Source: a virus (taxonomy: Duplodnaviria > Caudoviricetes). Taken from it: a DNA stretch of 60,804 nucleotides. The notes beneath the pieces were generated by a model, which saw nothing but the letters and a program-made list of their open reading frames with translations, was not told the origin of the DNA and did not search any database. The stretch spans positions 1 through 60,804 of IMG/VR virus record IMGVR_UViG_3300048592_000232. The stretch is one strand, 5' to 3'. Below, in pieces: positions 2,267-24,686 of the stretch (positions are counted from its first letter, which is position 1; every line of letters begins with the position of its first letter). A program made the translations under genes and the position numbers.

Positions 2267-2398
2267 TTCAGACGGGAAGGATGAAACGGGGGTTCTGAGT
2301 CTCTCTATCCCCCTAGTGTATATATATCTTTAGATATATATATACACGTAGGGGATATAGAGAGACTTGAAACCGCTGATTTCCCTTCCCGGTCTGAA
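2267..2398. repeat. Long imperfect inverted repeat with AT-rich core (hairpin A), origin-like
   Basis: ttcagac gggaagg...agtctctctatccccctagtgtatatatatct TT agatatatatatacacgtaggggatatagagagact...ccttccc ggtctgaa. Confidence 0.85.
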
Positions 2399-2454
2399 GC
2401 TCAAAAACAGGGGTTTACATCTTCAAATCACGCTTTTCCTGGCAGGCAATTTTG

Positions 2455-2635
2455 TTTGTGGAGAGTTTGAGAGTAGTTTGTGAGCAAATCGTGGACAATT
2501 AGTGGAGGCTTTGAGAACCTTACAAAAACCGCCGTTTTACTCTGGATAGATTTCCATAAAATTGAGTTAGCGGGCAATTAGTGGACAATTAGTGGAGGCT
2601 TGACGGTAAATTTGCGGTATGTTCACGGTATGTTT
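2455..2635. repeat. Degenerate 11-bp-period array containing a 73-bp block (2521-2593) duplicated at 24311-24383
   Basis: CAATTAGTGGA tandem units; gtggacaattagtggaggctt at 2491 and 2581; acggtaaattt/gcggtatgttc/acggtatgttt. Confidence 0.75.
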
Positions 2636-2723
2636 GTGACGCCTTGACGGTACGGCGTATATGCGCTATGCTGGTATGCGTAAGAGCCGATAAATCCATG
2701 TTTTGCTGATAGGGGAGATTGCA

Positions 2724-3032
2724 ATGTCTAAGAGGAATTTTGTTGCAGCCTGTGAGGCACACCAGCGTGTCGCCGAGATGCTGAAGGCCATTCAGGAACG
2801 CCGTGCATCCACCGCTTCGGTGGTGATGCGGATGCTTATCTATGAAGCTGCTGAGCGGACAAACGATAAGCGGATGCGCTTTGACAGGGCGTACACCGGC
2901 GGGGTAAGCATCCATGTTGACCTGTCGCGTGAAGAACGTGACAGGTTCCGTGAGATTCAGAAGCGGTGGGGGCTGTCGGCCAGCGACACGCTGCGCCATC
3001 TCATCGTAGAGGAATACGAGCGGATGGCGTAG
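2724..3032 (+). CDS. Small DNA-binding protein, probable tandem ribbon-helix-helix
   Basis: RBS AGGGGAG; two RHH-like units (SIHVDLSREERDRF...SASDTLRHLI); upstream TTGACG-17-TATGCT promoter. Confidence 0.55.
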   Translation: MSKRNFVAACEAHQRVAEMLKAIQERRASTASVVMRMLIYEAAERTNDKRMRFDRAYTGGVSIHVDLSREERDRFREIQKRWGLSASDTLRHLIVEEYERMA

Positions 3033-3036
3033 CGTG

Positions 3037-4494
3037 TTAGCGCGTCACGATCTGGGTGACGTTCCCGCCTTCGACCCAGATCGTGGCATGGCGCTTGAGG
3101 AATGCGTTGACCTTGACGATGTCGTAGTCGTCGCCGGTCAGCATGTCAACCGTGACGGCGACGAACTCTTGCAGCCGCTCAACCCGGTTGGCAACGTCGG
3201 CGTGTGTTGCCTGGTTGCGCCGGGCGATCAGTTGCAACTCTGCGTTGCGTTGCTGATTGCGGATGCGCGTCATGTGCGCTTGAAATTCTTCCAGGTCGAG
3301 AATGCCGTCAGTGTAGGCGCGTGTGAGCCGGTCTCGCTGCTGGGTCAAATCCTGCAAGGCAGTTTCAAGCTCTGCGATCTCTTTTTCGATTGGCGCCGTG
3401 TCTTGACGCAGCGACTCAATCATTGAGTCGTAGGTTTCCCGCCTTCTGATCTCGCCGATGTAGAGCAGAAGTGCAAAGGTAACGGCGCTTTCCCCGATCA
3501 GCGTCTTCGTGCACCTCTCCGCTTGGTTGCGCCGGTTGCTGCACACGTAGATGCGATCCGTGCGTCCGTAGCCTGCATTGTGAATGTGTTTGCGACCGTT
3601 CGACGCCAGCCGGCCTCCGCACTGCTGGCAGCGCAGGATGCCGCTGTACAACGCTGGCGACGAAACCGAACGCCTAGCCTCACTGCGTCGCGCTCGTTCG
3701 CTCTCGACTTCCTGCGCGGTGTCTTCGCTGACGATGGCTTCCCAGACGCCGCGGTTGCGCATGGGATCGTGCTTCTTGCTTTTCAGCCGGTACTGCGCAT
3801 AGCCCGCATATGTCCAAATCGTGTTGATGACATGTTCTGCCGTGCTGATCCCGATGCCTAGTTCCGTGGCGATCTTGCGCAGAGATAGCCCCTCGTACAG
3901 GTACAACTCGACGATGCGCTTGACCGTCTGCGCCTCTTGCGCATGGATCACATAATCGCCGTCGCCCTTTTTGCGGTAGCCAAACGGTGGGCGACCCGGC
4001 ATTTTGCCTGCCTTGATTCTGGCTTCCATACCAAAGGCGTGGCGCTTGCGCAGGTTGATCAGCTCCATCTGCAAGAAAAGACCTTCAATGCCGTAGGTGA
4101 TTTGCCCGCCAATCGACATGGCTTGTTCGTTGGCGTCAAGGGACTGCGGCGGCGAAGAACGCAAGTAGATGGCGCACCCGTTGGCGTGGCAGATGTCGAT
4201 TACCTGGCTGGCGAGCGCCGTCCTCCTGCCGAGCCGAGACAGGTCACGGGCGATCAGGATGTCAGCCGCGCCAGCCTTGACCATCTCACGCAGTTGGCGG
4301 TAGGCGAGAATGTTCGTTTCGGCGTCTACGAACTCCGTGTACTCTCTTGATTGTCCCGGCACATCCAGCACGGCAACAATCTCCGCGCCGATTTTGCGCG
4401 CGGCGGCTTCGTTCTCGCGGCGCTGTTCGTCGGGTGACTCCTTCTCCGCTTGTGGTCTGCTGGACACTGCAATCCAGGAAATTGCACGGCGCAT
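3037..4494 (-). CDS. Large serine recombinase (integrase)
   Basis: N-terminal resolvase domain (AVSSRPQ; DLSRLGR), GRPPFGY recombinase domain, SGILRCQQCG...YVC zinc ribbon, C-terminal coiled coil. Confidence 0.92.
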   Translation of the reverse strand: MRRAISWIAVSSRPQAEKESPDEQRRENEAAARKIGAEIVAVLDVPGQSREYTEFVDAETNILAYRQLREMVKAGAADILIARDLSRLGRRTALASQVIDICHANGCAIYLRSSPPQSLDANEQAMSIGGQITYGIEGLFLQMELINLRKRHAFGMEARIKAGKMPGRPPFGYRKKGDGDYVIHAQEAQTVKRIVELYLYEGLSLRKIATELGIGISTAEHVINTIWTYAGYAQYRLKSKKHDPMRNRGVWEAIVSEDTAQEVESERARRSEARRSVSSPALYSGILRCQQCGGRLASNGRKHIHNAGYGRTDRIYVCSNRRNQAERCTKTLIGESAVTFALLLYIGEIRRRETYDSMIESLRQDTAPIEKEIAELETALQDLTQQRDRLTRAYTDGILDLEEFQAHMTRIRNQQRNAELQLIARRNQATHADVANRVERLQEFVAVTVDMLTGDDYDIVKVNAFLKRHATIWVEGGNVTQIVTR

Positions 4495-4511
4495 GGTGTT
4501 CTCTCTCCAAA

Positions 4512-4538
4512 CAAAAAAGCGGCGACCTTTCAGCCGCC
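4512..4538 (-). terminator. Intrinsic terminator between repressor and integrase
   Basis: Minus strand ggcggc-tgaaag-gtcgcc-gc followed by TTTTTT. Confidence 0.55.
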
Positions 4539-4563
4539 ACTTACATGATTTTGGTTCGTGTGT

Positions 4564-5010
4564 TCAGGCCAGCGTGAATGTTCTGAGAAACGAGATAAGC
4601 GTTTTGCGTCTGTCGGATGGCGTTGATTGCACCAGTGCGCACAGTTCCTCGATTTCCGCCGCCGACTCTGGGCTATCCAAGTGTACGATCAGGACATCTT
4701 CGTCCCGCCTTGCGGGTAGCATCGGGTCTTCAGTCAACAGAACGAGAAAATCAGTCGTGGTTTTCAGCACGATGGCGAGTGCCTTGAGAAGCTGCCCGCT
4801 TGGATAGGTGTCCCCTCGTTCCAGTTCTGAGATGTAGGATTGCCCAACCTTTACGCCTCCTTCCAGGTCAAGCATTGAGGTCAGTTGTTCTTGCGTCATG
4901 CCCATATTGCGACGCAAGAAAAGAATCCGTTTACCGGGGGTGTCCAGTAACGTGTTTTCGTGTCGGTCTTTGCCCTTTCGCACCTTGCCTCCTTTGCGCT
5001 GATACTCCAT
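4564..5010 (-). CDS. XRE/HTH immunity repressor (CI-like)
   Basis: GKRILFLRRNMGMTQEQL...QSYISELERG...LKALAIVLKTTTDFL; upstream of integrase and divergent from early genes. Confidence 0.88.
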   Translation of the reverse strand: MEYQRKGGKVRKGKDRHENTLLDTPGKRILFLRRNMGMTQEQLTSMLDLEGGVKVGQSYISELERGDTYPSGQLLKALAIVLKTTTDFLVLLTEDPMLPARRDEDVLIVHLDSPESAAEIEELCALVQSTPSDRRKTLISFLRTFTLA

Positions 5011-5361: not shown

Positions 5362-5505
5362 CATGGAGATCGTCATCAAGCACCCATTGGCGCCGCCTAT
5401 CGTTGTCCGGTTTACCGCTCGACCAGAACGTCTTGCCTCAAATCTCATTACCGACGCCTTAAAGACTGCTGAAGCTGCAAGAATATCACCTAAACCGATA
5501 ATATC

Positions 5506-5769
5506 ATGACAGAACTGATAGCCTTCGTCGCGGGTATCATCTGGGGTGTTATCTGGGTGTCATTTTTGTACGGCACCAAACGCGGTCGGTGGGTGCGCAT
5601 GTATCGCACCTGGATCACGGTCGTTGTCGGTGTGGGTGTCACCCTGCTGATCCAGGGCGTCGTCTTCGGCGTGGACGTGGCCGTCAGCGCGCTGATCGTC
5701 TTTGCCGGGTCAGGCACGCCGATCATCCTGGCAAGCCTGTACGACGAATACAAGCGAGACACCGAATAA
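5506..5769 (+). CDS. Small multi-pass membrane protein
   Basis: Three hydrophobic segments in 87 aa. Confidence 0.6.
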   Translation: MTELIAFVAGIIWGVIWVSFLYGTKRGRWVRMYRTWITVVVGVGVTLLIQGVVFGVDVAVSALIVFAGSGTPIILASLYDEYKRDTE

Positions 5770-6047
5770 TGGCGACGCCGACACGCCTTGCCAACAAAAC
5801 GATAGCCTCACTGGAGGCAGCGTTTGCACGGCTGGACAAGGCGAGTGCGGACATGTCCGTCCTGAATGAGTACCTGGAAACGGAAATGTCCGAGGCAAGG
5901 TTAAACATGGATCGGCGCCGACAGGCACGCGCCGGCGAGGCCGCGGCAGCGGTTGCACGTATCACGACAAACCTCTGGGTCATCGAGCGAATCCTCAATG
6001 ATGCCCGCTTGGGCAGATTCGACGACTTGCGCTACCCTGAGCAATAA
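5769..6047 (+). CDS. Hypothetical helical protein
   Basis: ATG overlapping the upstream stop (TAATG). Confidence 0.55.
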   Translation: MATPTRLANKTIASLEAAFARLDKASADMSVLNEYLETEMSEARLNMDRRRQARAGEAAAAVARITTNLWVIERILNDARLGRFDDLRYPEQ

Positions 6048-6125
6048 TTATCACTCTCAGCAATAATAAATGCTTGACATTTACCAGCACAAGTGATAAT
6101 CTGTTCTCTGCAAGGAGACAGAGAA

Positions 6126-8993
6126 ATGGTCACACTACGTGAATATCAAAAAGAGGCACGTGATGCCGTGTGTACGGCATGGGCGGAAGGGACGCACAGC
6201 GTCATTGTCGTGCTTCCCACGGGAATGGGCAAATGCTTGGGATGGCAGGAAGACGTATTTCTAGGGAACGGCAGTATCGTTCCTGCATACACACTTGTCG
6301 GCAAGACGGTTGACGTTATCGGAGTGACGGATACTGAGACGATGCAAAAGGTTTCAGTATCTGCAACGTTCACGGATAACGGAATCCGGGATGTGTATCG
6401 AGTCACGTTTGATAATGGTACTTCGATCATACGGACGGCAGAACACCCGTTGTGGACTGCGCGTATGAAAAAATACCACGTAAACGCGCAGACGGGGAAG
6501 GATTGCACGGTTCCGATTGACGCGGGTTGGGTGCAGACAAAAGATATTCTGCCCACCGGGAATCGTCGGGCGTATTACGATATGGGACACGTTGTTTTGT
6601 CCCCTGTCGGACTTCCCATGAAGGGATACGAAGTAGACCCAGATATTGTATTTCTGGCTGCGTTATTCTTTGCTGAAGGCGCGTTGTCAAATGGCGATGC
6701 AAGATTCTCTACTTCTGACCCCGAAACACTAGAACGCGCCCGCGTCATTGCAGCACGATATGGATGCAGGGTGCAACATATCGCAAACTACGATTATGCC
6801 CTGAGACTAGAAAACGGCACGCGTAATCCTATTACAAAGATTCTGAAGGAATGGGGCATGTGGGGGAAGCGCGCCGAACAAAAAACAATCCCCTCAGAGA
6901 TTATGCAAGGGGACGATCAAACAATCGCCCTGTTTTTGCGTCACCTTTGGGACATGGACGGATGGTATTCGTTCCAGCGGGACACCGCCAAAGCTCCGCA
7001 GATTGGTATAGCACTCGCCACAAAAGAGGGGGTTGAACAAGTCTCAAAACTCGCCCATCGCCTGGGAATCGTCGGTGGTCGAATCCGCTATCAAAAAAAT
7101 GAGAAACGCGGTGCATATCGATGGGTATCGAGCGAAGTAGAAAAATGGCAACAGATTATCGGCGCGAACGTCAAAGCGCAAAATCTTGCGGATTGCGTAA
7201 CGCATAATCAGGCACGAATCGAGGGGCGAAAATCTGAATGGCTTGCATGGCGCACGGCGCGCACGGATGGCAAGTTTGCAGATTGCCCGGAAGGGTATCG
7301 ATGGCTGAAAGTCGTTTCGGTCGAAGCGTTGCCCCCTCAGTCCACCGTGTCTATCGAGGTACATAACGACAATCATGCCTTCCTGGGATACGCGGTCGAG
7401 CATAACACGCATCTGCTGCTTTCTGTATTGGCGGCAGAGCGGGACGGCGGACAGTTAGGTCGAGCAATCATCCTGGCGCATCGCAAGGAGTTGATTGACC
7501 AGCCTGCCAGACGCATCGAAGAATTCTTCCTGGGACAATTGCCCATCCCCGGCATTGTCATGGGTGGGCGCAACGATGCCGGTGCGGAAGTCATCTGCGC
7601 GACCGTGCAGACGCTGTCCAGAGAGCGCCGTTTACGGGAAGTGCTGAGACATGGCCCCGTCACGCACCTTATCATTGATGAGGCGCACCATGCCGCCGCG
7701 AGCGGCTACGTCGAAGTCATCGAGCACTTGCGCAGCGTCAATCCCCATCTGCGCATCTTGGGCGTCACTGCGACCCCGAACCGATCCGACGCAGCGGCTT
7801 TGACCGTCTTCGACAAGCAGGTCTATAAGAAGACGATCAAGGATGCCATCCACAACTACAAAGTGCTGGTGCCTTTCGTCGCGATGGGAATCAAACTCCC
7901 GGTTGACATCAGCCGGGTCAAAATCCAACAGGGCGACTACAGCGCGGGCGAGCTTGGCAGCGTCATGGACGTTGCCAACGCCAATGACATCATTGTCGAG
8001 ACGTGGAAGAAGCACGCCAGCGACCGCCTGACGATGGCATTCACAGCCACCGTAGCACACGCCAAGCACCTGGCCGAGGCATTCCAGGATCACGGCGTCC
8101 GGGCGGAATGGGCGTCAGCAGACACGGCGAAAGAAGACCGAGACGCCATGCTGAAACGCTTCGAGCGTGGCGAAACCCGTGTTATTGTCAACTGCGCTTT
8201 ATTCACGGAGGGGTTAGATGTCCCCAACATCTCCTGTGTCCTCATGGCACGCCCGACGCAGAGCAATACCGTCTACACTCAGGCGGTCGGGCGTGGACTA
8301 CGGACGTTTCCCGGCAAAGAGAACTGCCTGATCCTTGACTTCGTGCCGACCAGCAACAAGAGCCTGTTGACCGGCAATGCGTTGCTGGAAGGCAAGCCGC
8401 TGGAACAGAGAAAGGCCGAAGACGCTGCGATGAAGCAGGGAACCATCCTGGAAGTCATCGGGATGGACATTCAGGGGAACGGCATTGACGCCGATCCGGA
8501 CACGGTTGTCATGCAAGCGTTGAACCTGCTAGGCAGTGCGCCGCTCGCATGGACATTCGACGGCAAGTTAGCGACGGCGGGTGGCGGGCAGAATTTGACG
8601 CTTGTCATTGTGTCGCCGCAGGAAGACAGAGTTGCAAAGGCGCAGCAACTCAAGGCGGCGGGGCAATGGAAGCCGGAATGGGACGCCAGCTTCGAGCGCA
8701 TCTCTGCCTACTCCGTCTACGCCGTCAACGGCAGCGTGTCGCACATCGGCAGTGTTGCGGAGTGGAGCGGCGCGGTGGAAGTGGCGCAGGACTACGTCGA
8801 GGAATACGGCGATCCCATGCTTGCCCGCAAATCGAAAAGTTGGCGCGGCGACGCGGCGACAGCAGGACAGCGCGGCATGATGAAGCGTCTCGGCGTCCCC
8901 TACAAGCCCGGCATGAGCAAAGGCGAGGCCTCACAAGCCATCGCTCACAAAATGGCCGAAATTGAACTCAAGAAAGTGGGCATACTGGCATGA
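6126..8993 (+). CDS. SF2 DEAD/DEAH-box (Res/III-like) helicase interrupted by an intein
   Basis: LREYQ, PTGMGK/T, IIDEAHH, GVTATP, TEGLDVP, QAVGRGLR; promoter TTGACA at 6074. Confidence 0.92.
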   Translation: MVTLREYQKEARDAVCTAWAEGTHSVIVVLPTGMGKCLGWQEDVFLGNGSIVPAYTLVGKTVDVIGVTDTETMQKVSVSATFTDNGIRDVYRVTFDNGTSIIRTAEHPLWTARMKKYHVNAQTGKDCTVPIDAGWVQTKDILPTGNRRAYYDMGHVVLSPVGLPMKGYEVDPDIVFLAALFFAEGALSNGDARFSTSDPETLERARVIAARYGCRVQHIANYDYALRLENGTRNPITKILKEWGMWGKRAEQKTIPSEIMQGDDQTIALFLRHLWDMDGWYSFQRDTAKAPQIGIALATKEGVEQVSKLAHRLGIVGGRIRYQKNEKRGAYRWVSSEVEKWQQIIGANVKAQNLADCVTHNQARIEGRKSEWLAWRTARTDGKFADCPEGYRWLKVVSVEALPPQSTVSIEVHNDNHAFLGYAVEHNTHLLLSVLAAERDGGQLGRAIILAHRKELIDQPARRIEEFFLGQLPIPGIVMGGRNDAGAEVICATVQTLSRERRLREVLRHGPVTHLIIDEAHHAAASGYVEVIEHLRSVNPHLRILGVTATPNRSDAAALTVFDKQVYKKTIKDAIHNYKVLVPFVAMGIKLPVDISRVKIQQGDYSAGELGSVMDVANANDIIVETWKKHASDRLTMAFTATVAHAKHLAEAFQDHGVRAEWASADTAKEDRDAMLKRFERGETRVIVNCALFTEGLDVPNISCVLMARPTQSNTVYTQAVGRGLRTFPGKENCLILDFVPTSNKSLLTGNALLEGKPLEQRKAEDAAMKQGTILEVIGMDIQGNGIDADPDTVVMQALNLLGSAPLAWTFDGKLATAGGGQNLTLVIVSPQEDRVAKAQQLKAAGQWKPEWDASFERISAYSVYAVNGSVSHIGSVAEWSGAVEVAQDYVEEYGDPMLARKSKSWRGDAATAGQRGMMKRLGVPYKPGMSKGEASQAIAHKMAEIELKKVGILA
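6234..7406 (+). mobile_element. Intein (391 aa) with LAGLIDADG-type homing endonuclease, inserted in Walker A
   Basis: GK|CL start, TAEHPLW block B, LFFAEG and LWDMDG endonuclease motifs, HN|T end; lower GC than flanks. Confidence 0.92.
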
Positions 8994-10171
8994 GTGATTT
9001 TGACGTAGAGGCTGCGCTTGATAGTGCGGCGCTGGCGGTGGATGCAGAGATTAAAAAGGCTGACGCGGGCGTATTGGGCAAAGCCTGGCAGGTGCGCAGT
9101 TTTCGGGATGCGTTCCAGCCTCGACCGCCGCTGCTCTACGTCGTGGACGGCCTGCTGGCCGCACCGTCGCTCAACATCTTCTATGGCGCACCCGGCAGCA
9201 TGAAATCGATGGTGCTGGCAGACCTGGCCGTCTGCGTTGCGCTGGGTGTGCCCTTCCTGCATTCCATCGAGGGGCAGCTTGGCAAGCCCGGCAGGACGTT
9301 CCGCACAGTGCGCAGTCCGGTGCTTTGGGTGGATATGGACAATGGGAAGCGACGCACCGACGTGCGCTTTGACGCCCTGGGCAGGGCGCACGGTGCGACC
9401 GTGGACGATGCGCAGTTGCAGTACATCTCGATGCCGTCACCGCACTTCAATGCCAGCAACGGCGAATTTATGAGCTACCTGGAAACGTTCATCCGGGCAA
9501 ACGAGCACCGGTTAGTTGTCATAGACAACTTGGGTCTCAGCATCGGTGACGCCGACGAAAACAAAGCGGAGATGGCGACAGTCATGCGCAACTTCAAGTA
9601 CGTTGCCGAAAACACGGCAACGTGCATCGTCATCATCCATCACCCGCGCAAAGGCGGCGCGGCGGAAGGCGTTCGGTTGGGCGACACCATGCGCGGACAC
9701 AGCACCATCGAGGCGAGCCTTGACGCCGCCTTCTACGTGGATCGGCTGGAAGGCAAGGACGCAATCAGTGTGGTTCCGGTCAAGGTGCGCGAGTACCGCA
9801 TTGACCCGTTTGGCGCCCTTTTCGCCTACGAGCATCGGGAAGGAACCTATGACTTGCAGACCGCGCGCTTTTTCAGCCAGTCGGTTGACTCGCCTGACGA
9901 AATGCGCAGAACGTTGGTACAGGACGCAATCCTGACTGTCGTCTTGCACTCCGGTACGGAAGGCATAGAACGCGGCGAGCTTTACGACGCCGTGCAGGGC
10001 AAAATGGAGGGACCACTCAAGATGAAATCGCCGGGTCGAAATGCCATCCGGGGACAACTGACCGTTTTGTGTGAAACCGGCATGATTGACGAGGTCAAAG
10101 AAGGACGCCGGTACATCTACATCCTAACTGAGAGCGGCTGGCCGGAAGCGCAGCGCCGCAAAGTTGGCTAG
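8990..10171 (+). CDS. RecA-family AAA_25 (RepA-like) replicative helicase with C-terminal winged helix
   Basis: YVVDGLL, GAPGSMKS Walker A, LVVIDNL Walker B, IIHHPRK, MRGHS. Confidence 0.85.
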   Translation: MSDFDVEAALDSAALAVDAEIKKADAGVLGKAWQVRSFRDAFQPRPPLLYVVDGLLAAPSLNIFYGAPGSMKSMVLADLAVCVALGVPFLHSIEGQLGKPGRTFRTVRSPVLWVDMDNGKRRTDVRFDALGRAHGATVDDAQLQYISMPSPHFNASNGEFMSYLETFIRANEHRLVVIDNLGLSIGDADENKAEMATVMRNFKYVAENTATCIVIIHHPRKGGAAEGVRLGDTMRGHSTIEASLDAAFYVDRLEGKDAISVVPVKVREYRIDPFGALFAYEHREGTYDLQTARFFSQSVDSPDEMRRTLVQDAILTVVLHSGTEGIERGELYDAVQGKMEGPLKMKSPGRNAIRGQLTVLCETGMIDEVKEGRRYIYILTESGWPEAQRRKVG

Positions 10172-10286
10172 TCATTCACGGCGGGTTTACGCCGTGCACT
10201 TCTTGAAGTGGCCTCCATAACCCGTCCAGCAATGACACTCACCTATTACCTGAAATGATAAATACCAGTTTAGGCGTAATGAATAC

Positions 10287-10345
10287 TTGACATTTATCAT
10301 CATGTGTGATAAATTTAGCTTGTACAGATATTCAGAGCGAATCGA
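10287..10345 (+). promoter_or_regulatory. Promoter with palindromic operator ATTTATCA-N7-TGATAAAT and leader motif GAGCGAA
   Basis: TTGACA-17-TAAATT with the inverted repeat in the spacer. Confidence 0.65.
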
Positions 10346-16905: not shown

Positions 16906-16924
16906 TTGCCTAGGAGAGACTGAC

Positions 16925-17809
16925 ATGGAGAACACAAAGATCGAGTGGGCGCATCACACGTTTAACCCGTGGATTGGATGCGCAAAGGTGTCGGATGGTT
17001 GCCGGTTCTGCTACGCCGAAGCATTCGCCAGGCGCTACAACAAGGCCGAATGGGGACCAGCCGCGCAGCGCATACGCACCAGCGACGCCTACTGGCGCAA
17101 ACCGTTGTCGTGGAATCGGAAAGCCAAGCAAGAAGGCCGGCGCTATCGGGTGTTCTGCGCATCGCTGGCCGATGTCTTTGAGGATAAAGCCGAACTTGAT
17201 ACCTGGCGTCATGACCTCTTTCTTATAATTGAGCAGACACAGTCGCTTGATTGGCTTTTACTTACCAAACGACCAGAAAACGTGGCGACCATCATCGAGC
17301 GCCATGTTCCACAGGGAATTGCAAACTACTTCGATCTCAATCCGCACGTCTGGATCGGTGCGTCAATCGAAAACCAGGAGCAGGCAAACAAGCGTATCCC
17401 CCATCTGTTGGAAATACCTGCACGAGTACGCTTTCTAAGCATGGAACCACTGCTCGACCCAGTAGACCTAACCCCATGGGTAAACAGTTGCCCCAGTTGC
17501 GGCGCGCATCGCAAGGATAGCCTCCCAAATATCAGTTGTGGCTACTGCGAAGAACAACCACGCGTCCGTGGCCTCCAGTGGGTCATCGTCGGCGGCGAGA
17601 GTGGCGCCAAAGCCCGCCCAATGCGTGAAAGTTGGGTACGCTCCATTCTCAATCAATGCCAAGTATCGGCAACGCCATTCTTCTTCAAGCAATGGGGAGA
17701 ATGGGCGCCAACAGATCACTCTCCGACAGTAACCGACGTAATGAATCGCGTCGGAAAAACCGCAGCCGGACGCCAACTCAACGGGCGCACATGGGACGAA
17801 ACGCCATGA
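16925..17809 (+). CDS. DUF5131 / phage Gp37-Gp68 family protein
   Basis: TKIEW..TFNPWIGCAKVSDGCRFCYA; VFCASLADVF; LLLTKRPE; FLSMEPLL; WVIVGGESG; FFFKQWG. Confidence 0.9.
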   Translation: MENTKIEWAHHTFNPWIGCAKVSDGCRFCYAEAFARRYNKAEWGPAAQRIRTSDAYWRKPLSWNRKAKQEGRRYRVFCASLADVFEDKAELDTWRHDLFLIIEQTQSLDWLLLTKRPENVATIIERHVPQGIANYFDLNPHVWIGASIENQEQANKRIPHLLEIPARVRFLSMEPLLDPVDLTPWVNSCPSCGAHRKDSLPNISCGYCEEQPRVRGLQWVIVGGESGAKARPMRESWVRSILNQCQVSATPFFFKQWGEWAPTDHSPTVTDVMNRVGKTAAGRQLNGRTWDETP

Positions 17810-18183
17810 CCACCATCACCGACTACTCGCAGAAAGAGCTGCCGCAGAACATCCGCGACATGCTCGACGGCAAGCACGATGGCCGAGCGCTGGACGGCAA
17901 GAGCCTGGCGCAGGATGTGCGCGACCTGGGCGCAGCCAAAGAGCGCGTTAAGGCGCTGCTGTACATCGAAGGGCACGTAACCGGCGCTGACCTGTACACC
18001 CTGGCCGCCGATGAAATCGAGAGCCTGCGTGCGCAGGTGGAAGACCACATCGCCAATGCCCTGGTTAGGGCAAATCGGCAGGCGATCATCGTCGAGGCGC
18101 TGCGGCATATCCGGGAATTCAGCTTGTATCAACATGACCGAGAGGTTGCCACGCAGGTGCTGAGAGAGATTGGGGAGCAGTGA
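17806..18183 (+). CDS. Hypothetical protein
   Basis: ATGA coupling; AADEIESLR motif common in phage early genes. Confidence 0.6.
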   Translation: MTTITDYSQKELPQNIRDMLDGKHDGRALDGKSLAQDVRDLGAAKERVKALLYIEGHVTGADLYTLAADEIESLRAQVEDHIANALVRANRQAIIVEALRHIREFSLYQHDREVATQVLREIGEQ

Positions 18184-18328
18184 ACCATGACTAACGGCAT
18201 GGGATTTAAGACACTCATCTGGACGCACGTCGAACGCCCGTGCCGCTGCACGCCAGAGCACCGGCCATTCTGCCACCGCTGCGGAGGCACGGGCATCTAC
18301 AAAAGCGCACGACTACGGAGGATTGACC

Positions 18329-18571
18329 ATGTACATCAGCAGGAGACCGACGCCACGCACGGCGCACCTGACGCCGCAACCGATCACCAAGCAGCAGGTG
18401 CTTGACGCCGCTGCGCACTGGCGCAGGATCGCCAACGAGCAGGACGCCATCGCCGACAGCGAGACAGCGCAGGGTTTGCCGCGCGGCGACGTGTCCAGTT
18501 ACCGGGCACGTGCCACACTATGGCATCAAGTGGCGGATGACTTGAAAGCGCAAGCGGAGGTGATGGCATGA
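18329..18571 (+). CDS. Hypothetical protein
   Basis: RBS GGAGG; coupled to the next gene. Confidence 0.55.
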   Translation: MYISRRPTPRTAHLTPQPITKQQVLDAAAHWRRIANEQDAIADSETAQGLPRGDVSSYRARATLWHQVADDLKAQAEVMA

Positions 18572-18984
18572 ACACGACCATAACTGTCAACATTGCCGAC
18601 CTCGAAAAGGTCAAGGTCAATCTTGCCCACTATCGAAAACAAATCGAGCAAGCGGCAGAGCGTGAAAACACTTTGATGCGGCTCCTTGAGCGCGCAAACG
18701 CCGAACGGCAGCAACTCAAGGCGGAGATTGCTGCACTGAAGCGCCAACGGATTGCCGACCGCGACGCCATTGCGGAGTATCTGCGCAGGGCAATGTCGGA
18801 TTTCCTCCAGAACACGATCAAGTTTCAGTTGCGCGAGACGCCGGATAGCTACGTTGTCGAAAAGGAGATCGTCAACGCGTGGTGGAAAGCCGCCAATACG
18901 AACTACGAAGACCTGGACGAAGACGATAAGTCCCTGTACATCTGCGACGCTGACGCAATCGTATCGATAGTGAGAGTGAACTGA
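18568..18984 (+). CDS. Hypothetical coiled-coil protein
   Basis: RBS GGAGG; ATGA coupling. Confidence 0.6.
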   Translation: MNTTITVNIADLEKVKVNLAHYRKQIEQAAERENTLMRLLERANAERQQLKAEIAALKRQRIADRDAIAEYLRRAMSDFLQNTIKFQLRETPDSYVVEKEIVNAWWKAANTNYEDLDEDDKSLYICDADAIVSIVRVN

Positions 18985-18988
18985 CACC

Positions 18989-19174
18989 ATGAATACACCA
19001 ACCTATGTCCCGTGGCTTGTCCTGGCAGGCTATGCAATCGCCACAACATCGCTGGTGCATCTCACCATCAAGATAGGCGCTGATGCTGCGCTGGCATGGC
19101 TGGCAGTTGCTGCAATCAGCGTTGCCGTTCGACTTGGCGAGCGGCATTTGAGAAGGACAGAAAGGATACAGTAG
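18989..19174 (+). CDS. Small two-TM membrane protein
   Basis: Two hydrophobic segments. Confidence 0.5.
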   Translation: MNTPTYVPWLVLAGYAIATTSLVHLTIKIGADAALAWLAVAAISVAVRLGERHLRRTERIQ

Positions 19175-19428
19175 TGAGCAACGACACACGTGAAGCGGTT
19201 GCCAGCGTGCAACACGACATCTGGGCGCACTGGATGAAATATCTGTTTTCAGTTTGTTACGTGAATCATGACGGAACGGTGACGATCCCAGCGGACAAAG
19301 CAATTCGCTGGAAACGGCAAATGAATACTGAATACGCCAAGTTAAGCGATGAGGAACAGGAGAGCGACCGCAATCAAGCCGATAAAGTTATCGGAGTGCT
19401 GCAACAAATTGAGCAGGTGAAACCATGA
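19174..19428 (+). CDS. Conserved-type small phage protein
   Basis: HDIWAHW..Y...RWKRQMNTEYAKLSDEEQESDR motif. Confidence 0.6.
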   Translation: MSNDTREAVASVQHDIWAHWMKYLFSVCYVNHDGTVTIPADKAIRWKRQMNTEYAKLSDEEQESDRNQADKVIGVLQQIEQVKP

Positions 19429-19924
19429 ACACCACGATGCGAGCGTGGGTAGTTCGTTGCGAAGGCGAGAGTTGCGTTGTCGTTGCCCGAACTCCAAATC
19501 GGGCAAAACAAATCACACAGCGTTCTGCAAAGGACGCCGGACTCGATGCGCAGTGGACGACTATCACCGTGCGCCGGGCAAAGCAGTTTGACTGTCTCGC
19601 TTTACACCGGGAGATCGGCCCCATCACGCCAAAAGTAGCGGAAACGATGGCGGCGCTATGACTGCCCGCTACGCCATCCAGCTTGCCGACTTCATGGTGT
19701 TGCGCCAGCGTGAACCGGCGCTCGGCATCGTGCTGGCCGCCAACGTCGAGCGTCAGCCGATCACCATCGGCAAGGAGCGCTTTGACGACGAAGCCGTAAC
19801 GTTTGCGTGCCCGGCAGAACAGGCTGAAGCGCTGGTGCAAATCGTGCGCACCAAATACCGCCGCGACGAAGTGCGCATCTGGCGCAACGACACGGGAGCC
19901 AAGAGCGCATGGAGGCGGGTGTAG
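19425..19924 (+). CDS. Two coupled small hypothetical genes (19425-19661, 19658-19924)
   Basis: ATGA overlaps. Confidence 0.5.
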
Positions 19925-20053
19925 TGCTGCAACGAATCGGGCGAATCCGCCACAAAAGATGGCGTGCTATGCCACATTTTGTGGCATCTGCAGGTGTAGT
20001 GCTGCAACGAACTGCGACGCGTGCGTGGAACAGATGAAGGAGGAAAGGAAACA

Positions 20054-21388
20054 ATGGCTAAAAAATCATATTTGACTGTCACTGATCAGTTTTGCGGTGC
20101 GGGCGGTTCCAGTATCGGAGCCACCGCAACCGGTGTTGAATTGCGGGTGGCGCTCAATCACTGGCAACTTGCCATCGAGACACACAACAGCAATTTTCCA
20201 AACGCGCTACATGATTGCACCGACATCTCGGCCTGCGATCCGCGCCGCTACCCATCGACGGACATCCTGATTACCAGCCCGGAATGTACCAATCATAGCT
20301 TGGCGAAGGGAAAGCGCAGGCACAGCCAACCCGATCTATTCGGCGCGAACGTGCCCGACCCGGCAGAGGAACGCAGTCGAGCGACCATGTGGGACGTGCC
20401 CCGCTTTGCGGAGTATCATCGCTACAATGCCATCATCGTCGAGAACGTAGTCGATGCGAAACACTGGGTCACATGGGACGCCTGGCTGCACGCCATGCAG
20501 TTGCTTGGCTACGAGCACCAGATCGTCTTTTTTAACAGCATGTTCGCATGGCCGACGCCGCAGTCGAGAGATCGCATGTACGTGGTCTTCTGGCGCAAGG
20601 GCAATGCACGACCTGACCTCGACTTCCACCCGGCTGCGCACTGCGAGAGGTGCGGCAAGACTGTCGAGAGCGTCCAGTCCTGGAAGCGCCACGGGCAACG
20701 GTGGGGCCGCTACGGTGCGCAATACGTCTACCGCTGTCCCACCTGCGCCGCCGAGGTCAAGCCGTTCTACAACCCCGCTGCTAGCGCCATCGACTGGACG
20801 CTGCCCGCCCCGCGCATCGGAGACCGCAATAAGCCGCTTAAAGGGAAGACGGTTGATAGAATCCAAAAGGGGTTGGACAAATACGGAAGGCGAGAATTGA
20901 TCGTCGATACATCATTTGGCGACGGAGATCGCGCGTCGTTGGTGTCCGAACCACTGCGAACACAGACGACGCGTCAGACGATGGCGCTTATCATGCCCTA
21001 TTACAGCACCGGCGTCGCCAGGCCAACCAGCGAGCCAATTCCGACCGTAACAACGACCGACCGGCACGCGCTTGTAGTGGCGCCTCCGTTCATCCTCGGC
21101 TACTATACGCGCGTATCTGGCGTTCGGGCTGCAATCAGCGGAGTCAATGAGCCTATGCCGACGCAGAGCACGCAGCCGCGTCATTACTTGGTACAGCCGG
21201 GCGGCGTGCCATCTGTCGAGGATTGCGGCTTTAGAATGCTGCGTCCGCACGAGATTCACAACGCGATGGCGTTCCCCTCCGATTATAAAGTCCTCGGCAA
21301 CAATCGCGAACAAGTGCGGCAACTGGGTAACGCAGTCACGCCGCCAGTGATGAAACTGCTCGTTGAGCGTGTGGTGAGGGCACTATGA
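20054..21388 (+). CDS. DNA cytosine-5 methyltransferase (orphan)
   Basis: DQFCGAGG motif I, SPEC motif IV, VENV motif VI, PQSRDR motif VIII, QLGNAV motif X. Confidence 0.93.
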   Translation: MAKKSYLTVTDQFCGAGGSSIGATATGVELRVALNHWQLAIETHNSNFPNALHDCTDISACDPRRYPSTDILITSPECTNHSLAKGKRRHSQPDLFGANVPDPAEERSRATMWDVPRFAEYHRYNAIIVENVVDAKHWVTWDAWLHAMQLLGYEHQIVFFNSMFAWPTPQSRDRMYVVFWRKGNARPDLDFHPAAHCERCGKTVESVQSWKRHGQRWGRYGAQYVYRCPTCAAEVKPFYNPAASAIDWTLPAPRIGDRNKPLKGKTVDRIQKGLDKYGRRELIVDTSFGDGDRASLVSEPLRTQTTRQTMALIMPYYSTGVARPTSEPIPTVTTTDRHALVVAPPFILGYYTRVSGVRAAISGVNEPMPTQSTQPRHYLVQPGGVPSVEDCGFRMLRPHEIHNAMAFPSDYKVLGNNREQVRQLGNAVTPPVMKLLVERVVRAL

Positions 21389-22539
21389 GAAACCAAACGT
21401 CATTCTTTGAGGACATGCGCCTGACACTCGAAGACGCCATCGGCCTAAGCGTCGCCAGCCTGAACGAATACGGGCAACGGTATCGACACTGGGCGATTGC
21501 CTACAGCGGCGGCAAGGACAGCACGGCAACAGTTGCGTTTGTGGCGTGGGCGATTCGCACCGGGCTGGTGCCTGCTCCGGCGTCGCTGACCGTGCTCTAT
21601 GCAGACACGCGCATGGAGCTACCGCCGTTGCAGCAAAGCGCCATGCAGTTGCTGTCAGCATTGTCGGCGCAAGGAATCAGCACGCAGGTCGTGTTGCCGA
21701 AGATGGCGGACAGATTTTTCGTTTACATGCTTGGTCGTGGCGTTCCACCACCAAGCAACACGTTCAGATGGTGCACACCGCAACTCAAGATCGAGCCGAT
21801 GCACGCAGCATTAGCCGACTTACGCCAGCGGCACGGCGAAAAGCTGTTGATGTTGACTGGCGTCAGAATGGGTGAATCGGCGGCGCGTGACCAGCGAATT
21901 GCATTGTCATGCTCAAAAGATTCCGGAGAATGCGGGCAAGGATGGTTTCAGGTCGCCACGCCTGACAGCATGGCAGACACGCTTGCACCGCTTCTGCACT
22001 GGCGATTGTGTCACGTGTACGACTGGCTCTATTTCGATGATCGGCACGGCTATGACGCTTCTGGAATCGCAGCAATCTATGGCGAGGATGATGTGCGAAC
22101 TGGGTGCGTTGGATGCAATCTTGCCAGCCGTGACAACGCGCTAGAACGCCTGCTGCGCCGGCCTGAGTGGTCGCACCTGGCGCCGCTGTTGGAATTGCGC
22201 CCGCTTTACGCTGAACTGAAGCTCGCAAAAAACCGCAAACGCAAAGCCGAACCGGAACTGCGCAAGGACGGCACATTTGCAACGAACGTACAGCGTCTCG
22301 GCCCGCTGACAATGGATGCGCGTCGCTATGGACTTGACCGAGTGTTGGACATTCAGCGGCGCGCCGGCGTTGACCTGATCAATGATGAAGAGATCGCTCG
22401 CATCTTGGAATTGATCGCCGCCGACACCTGGCCGAACAAATGGAGTGGTGACGACATCGCTGGCGACAAGATGCTTGACGCAGTGAGCGTCACAACATTG
22501 GGCGATCTTGTGACGCAACCAATCCTGGTGCACCTATGA
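21385..22539 (+). CDS. Phosphoadenosine phosphosulfate reductase family (DndC-like PP-loop) protein
   Basis: AYSGGKDS, RWCTPQLKIEP, GVRMGESAARD, RTGCVGC. Confidence 0.88.
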   Translation: MRNQTSFFEDMRLTLEDAIGLSVASLNEYGQRYRHWAIAYSGGKDSTATVAFVAWAIRTGLVPAPASLTVLYADTRMELPPLQQSAMQLLSALSAQGISTQVVLPKMADRFFVYMLGRGVPPPSNTFRWCTPQLKIEPMHAALADLRQRHGEKLLMLTGVRMGESAARDQRIALSCSKDSGECGQGWFQVATPDSMADTLAPLLHWRLCHVYDWLYFDDRHGYDASGIAAIYGEDDVRTGCVGCNLASRDNALERLLRRPEWSHLAPLLELRPLYAELKLAKNRKRKAEPELRKDGTFATNVQRLGPLTMDARRYGLDRVLDIQRRAGVDLINDEEIARILELIAADTWPNKWSGDDIAGDKMLDAVSVTTLGDLVTQPILVHL

Positions 22540-22766
22540 ACTACTACATCTTCGACCGTGTACCGGGCTACCATCCAAAATACACGTTTGCGGTGTTGGC
22601 CGTCAACGCCAACGATGCACGGCAGTGGATGCGCAACGTCAACAAAGGCGGTGTGCTGATTCGCACGATCACAAGCGGCGAGGTAAAGGCCGACATGGGC
22701 GCATTGACCACAGCAGCAGAACACGTCATCAGGGAGAAGCGAGAACTTGAGGAAGGGGAGCTATGA
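22536..22766 (+). CDS. Small hypothetical protein
   Basis: ATGA coupling on both sides. Confidence 0.55.
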   Translation: MNYYIFDRVPGYHPKYTFAVLAVNANDARQWMRNVNKGGVLIRTITSGEVKADMGALTTAAEHVIREKRELEEGEL

Positions 22767-23422
22767 CACACGAACTCCGTCTCGACCTGGGCGACCGCAA
22801 CGATCTCACCTGGGCGCAGCGCATCGTCACCAGCTACCACTACCTGCGCCGCCCCGTTGACCCGCGCGCACGCCCGATGGTCTACATCGTGCGTCACGAT
22901 GCTGACACGTACCAGCGTCCCCTCGGTCTGATCATGCTCGGCATTCCGCACGCCACACGCTGCACGGGCTGGTGGGGCTATCCCGGCCTGCCGACACAGT
23001 GGCAGGTCGTGGACTTGTGCCGCATTTGGATTGACCCGGATTTGCAACCTGGTGGACGATGGTGCGACCCGTACACCGTCCCCGGCTTCTACGACCGCTG
23101 CGGCAAGTTTCGCCCGACTACACCAACATGGGCGATCAACGAGGTGCTACAGCGCGTGCAGGCTGACCGGGTGCGCCTGTGGCCTCCGGTCTATTTGGAC
23201 CAGCCCTATCACATCCGGCTCGCCATCTCGTATCATGACCCGCACTACCACCGCGGCACCATCTACCGGCACAGCCACGCCACGCCGATGTACACCGACG
23301 CAACCGGCAACCCGATCCCCGGCTCGTCTGGTAAGTTCGGCTGGTGCTGGCCTCTGCCCGCGCCGGCCTGGGAATGGTGCAACCTGGCGGATTTGCGGGC
23401 AAGACAGATCAGGATGATATGA
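22763..23422 (+). CDS. Mom-like GNAT-fold DNA modification protein
   Basis: IVTSYHYL, DLCRIW, ISYHDPHYHRGTIYR match the Mom-family pattern (HY; E/DLxR; SYxD..H.G.IY). Confidence 0.65.
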   Translation: MTHELRLDLGDRNDLTWAQRIVTSYHYLRRPVDPRARPMVYIVRHDADTYQRPLGLIMLGIPHATRCTGWWGYPGLPTQWQVVDLCRIWIDPDLQPGGRWCDPYTVPGFYDRCGKFRPTTPTWAINEVLQRVQADRVRLWPPVYLDQPYHIRLAISYHDPHYHRGTIYRHSHATPMYTDATGNPIPGSSGKFGWCWPLPAPAWEWCNLADLRARQIRMI

Positions 23423-23514
23423 TCTCTTGCAGCCAGTCGCTCCGACTGCGGAATTTCCGCAGTCACTTTCACACAAATGCATCTCACCAAACCGCAACAC
23501 ACAAGGAGCACGCC

Positions 23515-23976
23515 ATGAAACTCTACGCACTTCTGATCGCCGTCGCCGCTGCCATCCTCGCCACCACTGCCGCCGCGCCAGCAGCACCCCGCTGGCCGTC
23601 CGCATCGCTCACCTACTGGCAGGAGGCCGAGCCGCTGCTCGACACCCTCGACATGGAATGCCGCGCCGGGCTGAAAGCCATAGGCGACCCGGACGCCATC
23701 GAGACCCCCCTCGACGCCGTGACAGCCGTCCAGGAAAGCGCCGCCGAGCTTGACCCGCCGCCCGCCTTGCTGCCGCTGCATACCCGCTTGGCCTACGCCG
23801 CCGAAACGTGCCGGAACACCCTCCAGTATGCCAGCGGTGCAACAAACAACGACGACATGCGCATCGTAATTCCCATGATTACCCAGTTCGGCATTGAGAC
23901 GCTGCGCAGCCTCAATGAGGCACGCGTCGAAGCTGCCCGCTACGCTGCCACGGTCGGCGGATTCCCAGGACGCTAA
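23515..23976 (+). CDS. Secreted protein with N-terminal signal peptide
   Basis: RBS AAGGAG; MKLYALLIAVAAAILATTAAA. Confidence 0.7.
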   Translation: MKLYALLIAVAAAILATTAAAPAAPRWPSASLTYWQEAEPLLDTLDMECRAGLKAIGDPDAIETPLDAVTAVQESAAELDPPPALLPLHTRLAYAAETCRNTLQYASGATNNDDMRIVIPMITQFGIETLRSLNEARVEAARYAATVGGFPGR

Positions 23977-23997
23977 TGAGTTTGCCTGACAGGAGAT

Positions 23998-24129
23998 AGA
24001 AAGGGGAAGCGCCCGGCCAATGGAGACCGGGCGCCTTGTCTTGCGGGCAGTGGGCGCTGAAAGGAAGGGCGTAAGAGCGAATTACAACCCATGCAAAGGA
24101 GAGTGCGCCGCGAGCCTGCCCCTCGTTGC
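23998..24129 (-). ncRNA. Candidate small regulatory RNA
   Basis: TTGACA(24164-24159)-17-TATGCT(24141-24136) promoter; nested stems with apical loop UUCGCUC and CU-rich internal loops; terminator-like hairpin 24009-24034; no RBS-led ORF. Confidence 0.55.
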
Positions 24130-24255
24130 ATTGACAGCATAGCACGTCGCCCGCCCACTGTCAATGCACGGCGGATAAGTACCCTGGCGCACCCCTCCGC
24201 AAACTTCACATAAAACCGACTTTTTGCGCAGAGCTTACCAAGAGTTCACGGCTAT

Positions 24256-24480
24256 TTTTAGCACAGTTTGTGCACAATTGGTCTACAATTGGTCGTAGTA
24301 TTAAGAGCTTTACGAAAATCGCCTTTTTACTCTGGGCGGATTGTCATAAAATTGAGTTAGCGAGCAATTAGTGGACAATTAGTCGTAGTCTAGAGCATAG
24401 TTTTAGCACAGTTTGTGAAAAGTATACCGACTTTTTCGTAGACATAACGCAAAAATCTTCACGCAAACCATACGCAAACC
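24256..24480. repeat. 11-bp-period array containing the second copy (24311-24383) of the 73-bp block
   Basis: 64/73 identical to 2521-2593; ttttagcacagtttgtg at 24256 and 24401; acgcaaa repeats. Confidence 0.8.
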
Positions 24481-24564
24481 TTGCAGGATGTATGTGCTAA
24501 TCGGCGCAACTTGATAGTTACGTCAATTTCTGTAAGTGCCTCCCAGGAAATTTGTAGGTTTCAT

Positions 24565-24686
24565 GGCGACAGTCCGCCAGGGGTCACTTGTCCCAGGATA
24601 TATCCCCCTACGTGTATATATATCTAAAAGATATATACACTAGGGGGGATATCCTTTGGGACGGTGACACCCTGAGCGCTGTCGCC
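24565..24686. repeat. Long imperfect inverted repeat (hairpin B), core inverted relative to hairpin A
   Basis: ggcgacag...gtcac.tgtcccaggatatatccccctacgtgtatatatatct AAA agatatatacactaggggggatatcctttgggacggtgac...ctgtcgcc. Confidence 0.85.

Follow-up and report, generated by a model that had tools for sequence, protein, structure and literature searches.

Viral origins of replication built on a palindrome, and phages with two origins, are known kinds. The subject here is a pair of long hairpin-forming palindromes, hpA and hpB, candidate replication sites in the complete IMG/VR virus record IMGVR_UViG_3300048592_000232 of 60,804 nucleotides (nt), the whole of which is called the window; what appears new is a family-wide module of helicase gene, palindrome and primase gene with conserved polarity. 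By analogy, the nearest working model for the palindrome would be an origin of herpes simplex virus 1 (HSV-1). As described in PMC12543377, HSV-1 OriS and OriL have an (AT)n spacer, closed by C/G, between inverted boxes that are bound by the superfamily 2 (SF2) helicase UL9, and the virus has three origins, redundant with one another, of which two are in inverted repeats. The phage resembles HSV-1 so described in that its early operon begins with an SF2 helicase gene and its hairpins have a conserved A-rich 3′ flank. Its SF2 helicase is RadD-like, however, its host belongs to another domain and its arms are longer (~65 bp), and the likeness is an analogy of mechanism with no homology of sequence or protein shown.

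For the presence of a second copy the nearest phage precedent, again by analogy, would be SPP1. In the accounts of PMC3485210 and PMC6316719 this siphovirus has two similarly organised origins, oriL and oriR, each with repeats and an AT-rich unwinding element and separated by 12-13 kb of the circle, and oriR is proposed to stall forks, after which a Holliday-junction resolvase aids the theta-to-sigma switch to concatemer synthesis. In the window, likewise, 22.3 kb separate the two copies, and a RusA-like gene is present. Unlike the phage hairpins, the SPP1 origins presented in those accounts have direct repeats bound by gp38, with oriL inside gene 38, no long palindromes, and use of the host DnaG. 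No gp38-type origin-binding family is present among the annotated open reading frames (ORFs) of the window, which is a weak test.

A likeness to the opposed ssi hairpins of IncQ replicons had been proposed in the first-pass annotation, made from the letters and ORFs of the window. In RSF1010, according to PMC8567376, ssiA and ssiB are two like hairpin-forming inverted repeats of 40 nt, adjacent in one oriV, that serve as opposite-strand entry sites for the RepB′ primase. The window shares with this a RepA-type (AAA_25) helicase and two hairpins of opposite polarity. From there the likeness fails: the phage primase is of the DnaG/T7-gp4 type, whereas RepB′, as that source presents it, is not a Toprim/DnaG protein, and the phage sites, of 132 and 141 nt, are neither ~40 nt long nor adjacent in one oriV. 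A ssi pair of the IncQ type was rejected on these grounds.

Two further systems are pertinent. In G4-type single-strand initiation signals (the complementary-strand origin of phage G4 and plasmid ssi sites) DnaG recognises a structured hairpin region on one strand in an orientation-specific manner, and such sites act, with host primase, on single-stranded genomes coated with single-stranded DNA-binding protein or on lagging strands. The phage hairpins are likened to these by description and not by sequence. In satellite phage P4 the primase-helicase initiator needs two separated cis sites, ori and crr, with shared repeats; these are short direct-repeat arrays, not long palindromes, and the alpha protein fuses primase, helicase and origin binding. 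No description of a helicase-palindrome-primase module was found in the literature searched, which was limited, so that its unpublished status is unproven.

The two hairpins

The palindromes are placed as follows.

2267-2398, minus-strand polarity: hpA, a 132-nt imperfect palindrome with 55 pairs; core at 2309-2359
24554-24694, plus-strand polarity: hpB, a 141-nt imperfect palindrome with 59 pairs; core at 24599-24647

Folded as single-stranded DNA, the segment 2260-2405 with hpA reaches -42.6 kcal/mol, against -12.8 (standard deviation 2.6) for shuffled sequence (z -11.5), and the segment 24555-24695 with hpB reaches -43.9 kcal/mol, against about -17 (z -9.1), with no equal among 200 shuffles in either case. 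A score above 70 in a 200-nt sliding self-reverse-complement alignment over the whole window is attained at hpA and hpB only. Both hairpins are thus real and where the first-pass annotation had put them, with the qualification that the fold of hpB is slightly longer than the 24565-24686 given for it. No additional copies of palindrome or core are scattered in the genome, in which the core word GTGTATATATATCT (at most 2 mismatches) occurs 5 times, against 0.05 expected, always within hpA or hpB.

By blastn, the hpA core at 2309-2359 matches hpB at 24647-24599 in inverted orientation at 90.4% over 52 nt and in direct orientation at 84% over 50 nt. That the relation is an inverted one, with hpB the near reverse complement of hpA as had been proposed, follows from several agreeing asymmetries. 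The loop is ATCTAAAGAT on the minus strand of hpA and ATCTAAAAGAT on the plus strand of hpB, in each the 5′ arm exceeds the 3′ arm by C plus TA, and on the 3′ side of both there is an A-rich run and then a GC box (CGCGCCGCCG / GGCCGCCGAC), this shared run and box being short motifs recognised by eye. The polarity of hpA (loop CTAAAG, longer 5′ arm, A-rich 3′ flank) is accordingly on the minus strand, which is the sense of the primase gene, and hpB has equal polarity on the plus strand, facing a promoter-like site at 24917-24944. Beyond the core and the iteron block D3 (below), similarity between the flanks of hpA and hpB is not significant by blastn.

The outer arms of hpA and hpB show no similarity by blastn, yet each is self-complementary, which bears out a further point of the first-pass annotation, and palindromy ends ~65 bp into each arm. 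Long palindromes are normally unstable in bacteria, and persistence despite this points to strong selection. A-tract-rich DNA had also been noticed outside each hairpin. This is partly right: at 24690-24890 there are 7 runs of at least 4 A/T (top 0.4% of windows); at 1640-1830 there are 4 (top 2.5%), but inside the primase ORF; and the relevant A-rich run is the one that directly abuts each hairpin.

A palindrome upstream of the primase gene in relatives

Comparison with relatives involves the following features of the window.

858-2117, minus: DnaG/T7-gp4-type primase (zinc ribbon plus Toprim)
2139-2167, minus: primase promoter-like site, TTGACA-17-TATTCT with TG, ~100 nt downstream of hpA in the gene sense
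2466-2593, plus: iteron block D3, between hpA and the promoter of the ribbon-helix-helix (RHH) gene
2703-3032, plus: RHH gene, divergent from the primase gene
6093-8993, plus: SF2 helicase, RadD-like, with intein
8990-10171, plus: AAA_25 RepA-like helicase (Pfam AAA_25, E 1.3e-25)

Evidence for the nature of the primase comprises a Toprim_2 domain (Pfam), a weak dnaG match and profile matches to DnaG (2au3, 1d0q) and T7 gp4 (1nui). Its relatives are few, with P0001 at 97% identity and the next at 44-52%. A locus search with the single primase protein found no relative; searches based on alignments succeeded, and one with 18 primases as query gave 28 viral, 14 genome and 80 metagenome loci, the records behind some being labelled Chloroflexota, Propionivibrio, Saccharibacteria and others. 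At the nucleotide level, megablast of window positions 1-25000 against 50,697 phage records gave no match. Two pattern searches of IMG/VR were discarded. The exact core pattern was present in 8 stretches, each with a single arm and none palindromic like the window, that are chance matches, and the loop-centred pattern ATATATCTWWWRGATATAT was present in 75 stretches, of which the 55 on the plus strand were scored, the best 15 having 15-23% G+C and none being C/G-clamped.

For the family as a whole, every 200-nt window of a locus was scored for self-complementarity, and the best score at most 600 nt upstream of the estimated primase start was set against all those elsewhere in the locus. The primases of the family-level relatives so tested are 31-51% identical. 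That upstream interval proved to contain the strongest palindrome of the locus in 21 of the 30 viral and genome loci and 35 of the 55 from metagenomes, sets that were not de-replicated (L015/16/17, L021/22, L030/31 and L079/80 are near-duplicates). Into the former set went the 31 better-matching of the 42 loci, less L029 with too little upstream sequence, while L035-L039, L069 and L072-L076 were left out as weak or partial matches. The latter comprises the 56 of 80 loci whose match starts well inside the contig, less L077, which was removed by a 450-nt filter. Taken on sequence comparison, the long palindrome is the most conserved non-coding feature adjoining the primase gene in the relatives.

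Two types of palindrome recur. In one, 2-4 tandem iterons form arrays that are inverted about an AT-rich centre (e.g. L028, L030, L064, L086, L088, L101, L105, L153 and L156), and the other consists of CACAC..TATA..GTGTG hairpins. Of 35 non-redundant regions, 12 have the word TAGTGT/ACACTA, where 1.1 would be expected, and 11 have CCCTAC/GTAGGG, where 1.8 would be. What precedes them is also relevant. In 27 loci inspected, all 12 large co-oriented ORFs that end just before the palindrome encode helicases (9 AAA_25, 2 D5_N/DUF5906 and 1 VapE), from which it appears that helicase gene, palindrome, promoter and DnaG-type primase gene form a conserved module. In the relatives the palindrome usually sits between the helicase and primase genes, and in the window hpA adjoins the latter.

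The closest parallels are in L012 and L013, the best viral loci (~50% identity), where a palindrome of 121-125 nt lies 150-200 nt upstream of the primase gene and has the architecture found in the window (CCCCC, TATAATAATAATATCT, AAA, GATATTATTATA, GGGGG). The order there is SF2 helicase, AAA_25 helicase, small ORFs, RHH gene (opposite strand), D3-like block with CCAGAGTAAAA, hairpin, promoter and primase, and the downstream side of the hairpin has an A-rich run, a GC box and a conserved TTGACA...TGTGATAAT promoter. The promoter-like site of the window primase is kept in L012, L013 and L079. The window RHH protein escaped Pfam detection itself and is homologous to RHH_1 proteins at the equivalent position in L012 and L013 (29-34% identity). 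Given this homology, ORF 2589-2999 on the minus strand, which overlaps the RHH gene, is probably spurious, and hpA is flanked by the promoters of the RHH and primase genes, which diverge, such that no transcript is expected across it.

In L079 and L080, with a primase only 44% identical, the core CCCCTAGTAATATATATATCTAAAGATATATATTACGTAGGG is near that of the window and the outer arms are unrelated to those of the window; by this comparison the core is better conserved than the protein. L077 and L081 have variant cores, and in L012, L013 and L077 two pairs are changed on both sides. As the outer arms of hpA, hpB and L079 are unrelated yet all pair, selection seems to act on pairing. Polarity is also kept: in hpA (read on the minus strand), L012, L013 and L079 the loop ATCTAAAGAT is in the gene sense, and the 5′ arm is 1-3 nt longer in 4 of the 4 hairpins of this core type, the L079 hairpin having its extra C on the other arm than the window. 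The polarity of hpB toward its own promoter-like site matches this gene-sense polarity. Separately, positions 4651-4850 of L081, near the end of a 4.9-kb contig and ~1.4 kb beyond the primase match on its downstream side, contain a second, very strong palindrome (self-alignment score 174).

Copy number, arrangement and other samples

Search of nine relative records (G001-G009) for paired copies gave a single palindrome in each. Of the longer records, G003 has 64.8 kb (rated 75% complete), G004 46 kb and G008 50 kb, and G004 is the only one of the nine rated complete; the close relatives G001 and G002 are fragments that end short of the place expected for a second copy. As far as seen, hpB would then be specific to the lineage of the window. 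In the relatives, helicases, hairpin and primase are all on one strand, whereas the early arc of the window, with its helicase genes, has the opposite orientation to the primase gene. Flipping the segment between the hairpins would restore the gene order of the relatives, and the arrangement in the window could be a matter of history (duplication and inversion with end points in the module) or of ongoing inversion.

Contigs of other sequencing runs (Logan; X1-X4) provide a check on assembly, with the provisos that depth taken from contigs shows no copy-number gradient and that rare isomers are dropped. The position of hpB is spanned by an X2 contig of 4189 nt (covering 23444-25858) and an X3 contig of 1150 nt (covering 23929-25078), and X2, X3 and X4 each have one contig with exactly the differences that distinguish the cores of hpA and hpB (TA insertion behind 24614, loop change at 24628). 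On the basis of these hpB-spanning and hpA-type contigs in independent runs, the hairpins are not assembly artefacts and the pair is stable in strains from three other studies. The contigs of X1 and X4 end inside hpB (at 24644 and 24656), as assemblers do at palindromes. In X2 the contig of hpA type is joined to a D3-like piece on the opposite strand (24310 to 24605), as is expected for the hpA locus; the ‘opposite strands’ joint was rejected as an inversion, being the paralogous D3-hpA contig. The inversion that had been offered as an alternative in the first-pass annotation has no junction in the contigs, which show the window arrangement only and could miss a minor isomer.

A probable replication site and its alternatives

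The reading preferred here, with a probability of roughly 0.5, is that hpA is a cis-acting replication element, either an origin or a helicase-primase entry site, of which hpB would be a second copy. It derives from the position in a replication module, the inverted repeats with an AT centre, pairing that is independent of sequence, a core conserved beyond the protein, and the fixed polarity with an A-rich tail. The parts of the element, of fixed polarity before the primase promoter, are a T-run, a long C/G-clamped palindrome with (TA)n at its centre, an A-rich run and a GC box, so that repeats of the inverted binding type around an easily melted AT-rich centre are present. The (TA)n centre would melt under negative supercoiling or after binding of an initiator, and the arms could refold as a cruciform or a single-strand hairpin. 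With its conserved loop and unpaired bases and its A-rich single-stranded tail, the hairpin may then be recognised on one strand by the phage helicase, the DnaG-type primase or both, and this recognition would start a fork. The D3 iteron block and the divergent RHH gene would be the control part. For hpB with its iteron block, of equal polarity on the opposite strand, either a second origin or a bound copy that stalls or regulates forks may be envisaged. The joint presence of hairpin core and iteron block at both distant sites is what a two-origin phage would show. The placement of hpA between divergent promoters, where no transcript should pass, also favours a replication role, as does the persistence of both copies in strains from the three other studies. 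The minimum of the detrended cumulative GC skew, at 2150 beside hpA, is compatible with an origin there; the minus-strand integrase and helix-turn-helix (HTH) genes have a skew near zero, not the negative skew that the late genes have on the plus strand.

Several considerations tell against an origin or entry site. The GC-skew maximum (22760 raw, 27112 detrended) is not at hpB, so that a skew profile, which had been suggested as a check, agrees at one hairpin and disagrees at the other, and skew is in any case confounded with gene orientation. The evidence on hpA and hpB consists of sequence comparison and contigs, and no origin-binding initiator was recognised among the annotated ORFs. Synteny with the primase gene would fit a transcriptional control site too. 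In 9 of the 30 and 20 of the 55 loci the upstream palindrome does not rank first, and several top scores are weak (41-55). The recurrent words of the palindromes were judged by a k-mer background of mostly coding DNA, which inflates AT-rich words. With the second copy absent from all nine relative records, comparison has no bearing on the function of hpB. Of the earlier proposal of strand-specific sites for the Toprim primase and RepA-like helicase, what comparison supports is the link itself (a palindrome by the primase gene, after a helicase gene, with conserved polarity) and not the pairing, which is not general.

Replication origins of uncultivated phages are almost never identified, and a signature in the form of a top palindrome of fixed polarity between the genes for a replicative helicase and a DnaG-type primase would mark a probable origin in dozens of metagenomic phages and prophages. 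If confirmed, it would provide a handle for origin annotation, a defined substrate for how a stand-alone phage DnaG-type primase finds its start site, and a natural two-copy arrangement in which the second copy as origin can be set against the second copy as fork barrier. A more elaborate version, which has to be regarded as quite unlikely, is a split, strand-specific origin, each hairpin with its 3′ A-rich tail loading helicase and primase on one strand and two forks leaving the 22-kb early arm in opposite directions, or else fork reversal or exchange between the inverted cores, aided by the RusA-like resolvase, that flips the arm or turns theta into rolling-circle replication. The latter would be akin to the model for SPP1 oriR or to the amplification of the yeast 2-micron plasmid that is driven by inversion. 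Were either true, long, cruciform-prone palindromes placed between the genes for helicase and primase would represent an undescribed type of origin that is widespread in uncultivated phages.

Transcriptional control is a possible, though unlikely, alternative to a replication site. On this account the palindromes and iteron arrays are an operator or enhancer-like double-stranded DNA site of a dimeric or multimeric regulator, e.g. the adjacent RHH protein, that sets the primase operon at hpA and genes 24974-26336 at hpB, the hairpin being incidental. The location of hpA between divergent promoters, a strong promoter-like site 100-225 nt past each hairpin in matching polarity, and the iteron arrays of relatives are all as it would have them; RHH proteins are known to bind arrays of short direct or inverted repeats. 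However, 80-225 nt separate the -35 box from the end of the palindrome upstream, the palindromes, at 100-140 bp, are far above operator length, separate iterons (D3) already adjoin the RHH promoter, and a sequence-specific duplex binder has no need of the pairing retained by unrelated outer arms in hpA, hpB and L079. None of 21 small ORFs near the palindromes of relatives has a Pfam match at E 0.001, a weak point since Pfam also missed the window RHH protein. An element acting in RNA, the transcribed hairpin being a terminator, an insulator, or a site of RNase III processing or antitermination at a module border (cf. the lambda nut and HK022 put sites in two operons), is very unlikely, even though polarity is conserved relative to downstream gene direction, a weak promoter-like site at 24372-24401 points into hpB, and the helicase operon upstream in L012 and L013 is directed at the hairpin. 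There is no U-tract; an intrinsic terminator with GC-rich stem and U-tract was rejected since the hairpin, on either strand, has a T-run before it and an A-run after it, opposite to what a terminator has, and a terminator scan reports neither hairpin. The nearest unit upstream of hpA is the divergent RHH gene, so that antisense read-through alone could reach hpA, the early operon has a terminator-like hairpin of its own (24009-24043), Rfam gives only sub-threshold, generic miRNA-like hairpins (18-34 bits against gathering scores of 50-140), and the iteron-array palindromes of relatives are unlike RNA elements.

More improbable still is that the inverted cores are recombination sites, whether attP-like or invertase-like targets of a serine recombinase or substrates of homologous or RusA-mediated exchange that flips the 22-kb early arm. 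In general shape the imperfect dyad core of 46-52 bp is like the att sites of large serine recombinases, the integrase gene has its 3′ end 640 nt from hpA, the phage encodes a RusA-like resolvase, and with the copies inverted a flip would give the order helicases, early genes, hairpin, primase of the relatives. An attP, which the first-pass annotation had entertained, would be a ~50-bp imperfect dyad in single copy by the integrase gene; a dyad core is present, but in two copies and with the RHH gene between integrase and hpA. The palindrome tracks the primase and not the integrase: no integrase homologue was found in 4 of 5 relative records with the palindrome, and those without a serine integrase (G001, G002, G004, which is rated complete, and G005) all keep it, which disfavours an attP. 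Contigs that cross hpB, from X2 and X3, run co-linear with the window, and large serine integrases normally do not recombine two like sites. Scarcely credible is a site of cruciform or telomere-type resolution, or a selfish or neutral palindrome without function. Protelomerase targets and poxvirus concatemer junctions do have a long palindrome, a TA centre and unpaired bases. Against this, no protelomerase or tyrosine recombinase is present among the ORFs scanned (41 + 32 Pfam, 54 PHROGs), unannotated ORFs remaining, palindromy stops after ~65 bp per arm, and two sites would cut the genome into two pieces; as to neutrality, position, polarity and core are conserved across relatives, and the genome has no more copies elsewhere.

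Iterons, promoters and terminator near the hairpins

Apart from D3 and the primase promoter-like site, the elements near the hairpins are these.

24009-24043, plus: terminator-like hairpin, GCGCCCGG-10 nt-CCGGGCGC then CTTGTCTTG, which ends the early rightward operon 500 nt before hpB
24256-24383, plus: iteron block D3′, in direct orientation relative to D3 and 170 nt left of hpB
24372-24401: weak promoter-like site in D3′, pointing into hpB, 9/12
24917-24944, plus: promoter-like site, TTGACA-16-TACAAT, 11/12, downstream of hpB and serving genes 24974-26336

D3 and D3′ form a direct repeat of 119-128 nt, 78-80% identical, just inside each hairpin, with iterons of the form (A/G)CAATT(A/G)GT(G/C)G at 11-nt spacing. 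D3 has two pairs of 11-nt-spaced iterons, 90 nt apart, flanking CTCTGG. The terminator-like hairpin at 24009-24043 was recognised by eye, the scan permitting loops of at most 8 nt.

Near-identical promoter-like sites of a family TTGACATTTATCAGC...GTGATAAT, at 2139-2171 (minus), 5479-5501 (minus), 6064-6099 (plus), 10277-10312 (plus) and 16122-16144 (minus), head several early units as well as the primase gene, and the form is common to the primase promoters of L012, L013 and L079. Another motif, TTGCCTGACAGG (dyad CCTGnCAGG), has 21 matches in the window at no more than 2 mismatches, against 5.6 expected, including 23982-23993, 24903-24914 and 2438-2449. Exact copies are located just upstream of the -35 box of the promoter-like site at 24917 and at the end of the early operon, and one copy is 45 nt upstream of hpA, a placement comparable to that upstream of the hairpin in L012 and L013. 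A middle or late regulator may have its site in this motif.

Between the early operon and D3′ there are ~260 nt (23990-24250) without a convincing ORF that contain, besides the terminator-like hairpin, a strong minus-strand promoter-like site (24164-24136) and a small palindrome (24121-24174), and that may encode a putative small RNA. In the 70-nt gap between the HTH and integrase genes an inverted repeat with 11-bp arms, followed by a T-tract (4517-4542, minus), is terminator-like by the scan and is also a candidate place for attP.

Genome layout

An exact 127-bp terminal repeat (1-127 equal to 60678-60804) is most likely the overlap of a circular assembly, with a unit genome of 60,677 bp. 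Annotation with Pfam and PHROGs shows a temperate, siphovirus-like phage. The hairpins split the circle into a 22.3-kb arc with the early and lysogeny genes and a 38.4-kb arc with the primase and late genes. From the promoter-like site at 2139-2167 a minus-strand block comprises primase, a DUF5131 gene, an FtsK-like ATPase, TerL, portal, major capsid protein, tape measure and tail genes down to 26342. The window has neither tRNA nor tmRNA genes. The remaining features are:

3037-4494, minus: serine integrase, lysogeny block
4564-5010, minus: HTH regulator, lysogeny block
5506-23976, plus: early operon, including both helicases, the RusA-like gene, the second DUF5131 gene, a C5 methyltransferase and a PAPS-reductase-like protein
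12383-12712, plus: RusA-like Holliday-junction resolvase (PHROGs), which bears only on the fork-reversal and cruciform readings
24974-26336, plus: short gene unit after the early operon
40249-43275, minus: tape measure
54422-55864, minus: TerL
56430-58076, minus: FtsK/SpoIIIE/TraB-like ATPase

The intein of the SF2 helicase has its N-terminal splicing region at residues 48-122 and LAGLIDADG_3 at 278-346; the L013 homologue (575 aa) has no LAGLIDADG or intein match in Pfam. The DUF5131 (phage Gp37/Gp68-like) paralogues are at 16925-17809 (plus) in the early arc and just downstream of the primase gene, the latter crossing the junction on the minus strand (~320 down to 1, then 60804 down to 60301). 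Contigs from other samples skip or replace parts of 16300-23400 (in X2, e.g. 16881-19665, 20448-22342 and 22772-23333), which is a mosaic accessory region, whereas the region of D3′ and hpB is kept. Within ORF 14138-14938 there are five 21-nt tandem units (14617-14742, a 7-residue repeat), of which one X2 contig is one unit short (21 nt missing at 14639). The gene for a tail protein of 1249 residues contains a 300-nt direct repeat, 82% identical (28823-29122 and 29249-29548). The FtsK/SpoIIIE/TraB-like ATPase gene lies directly upstream of the terminase genes, which is unusual for the packaging block of a tailed phage.

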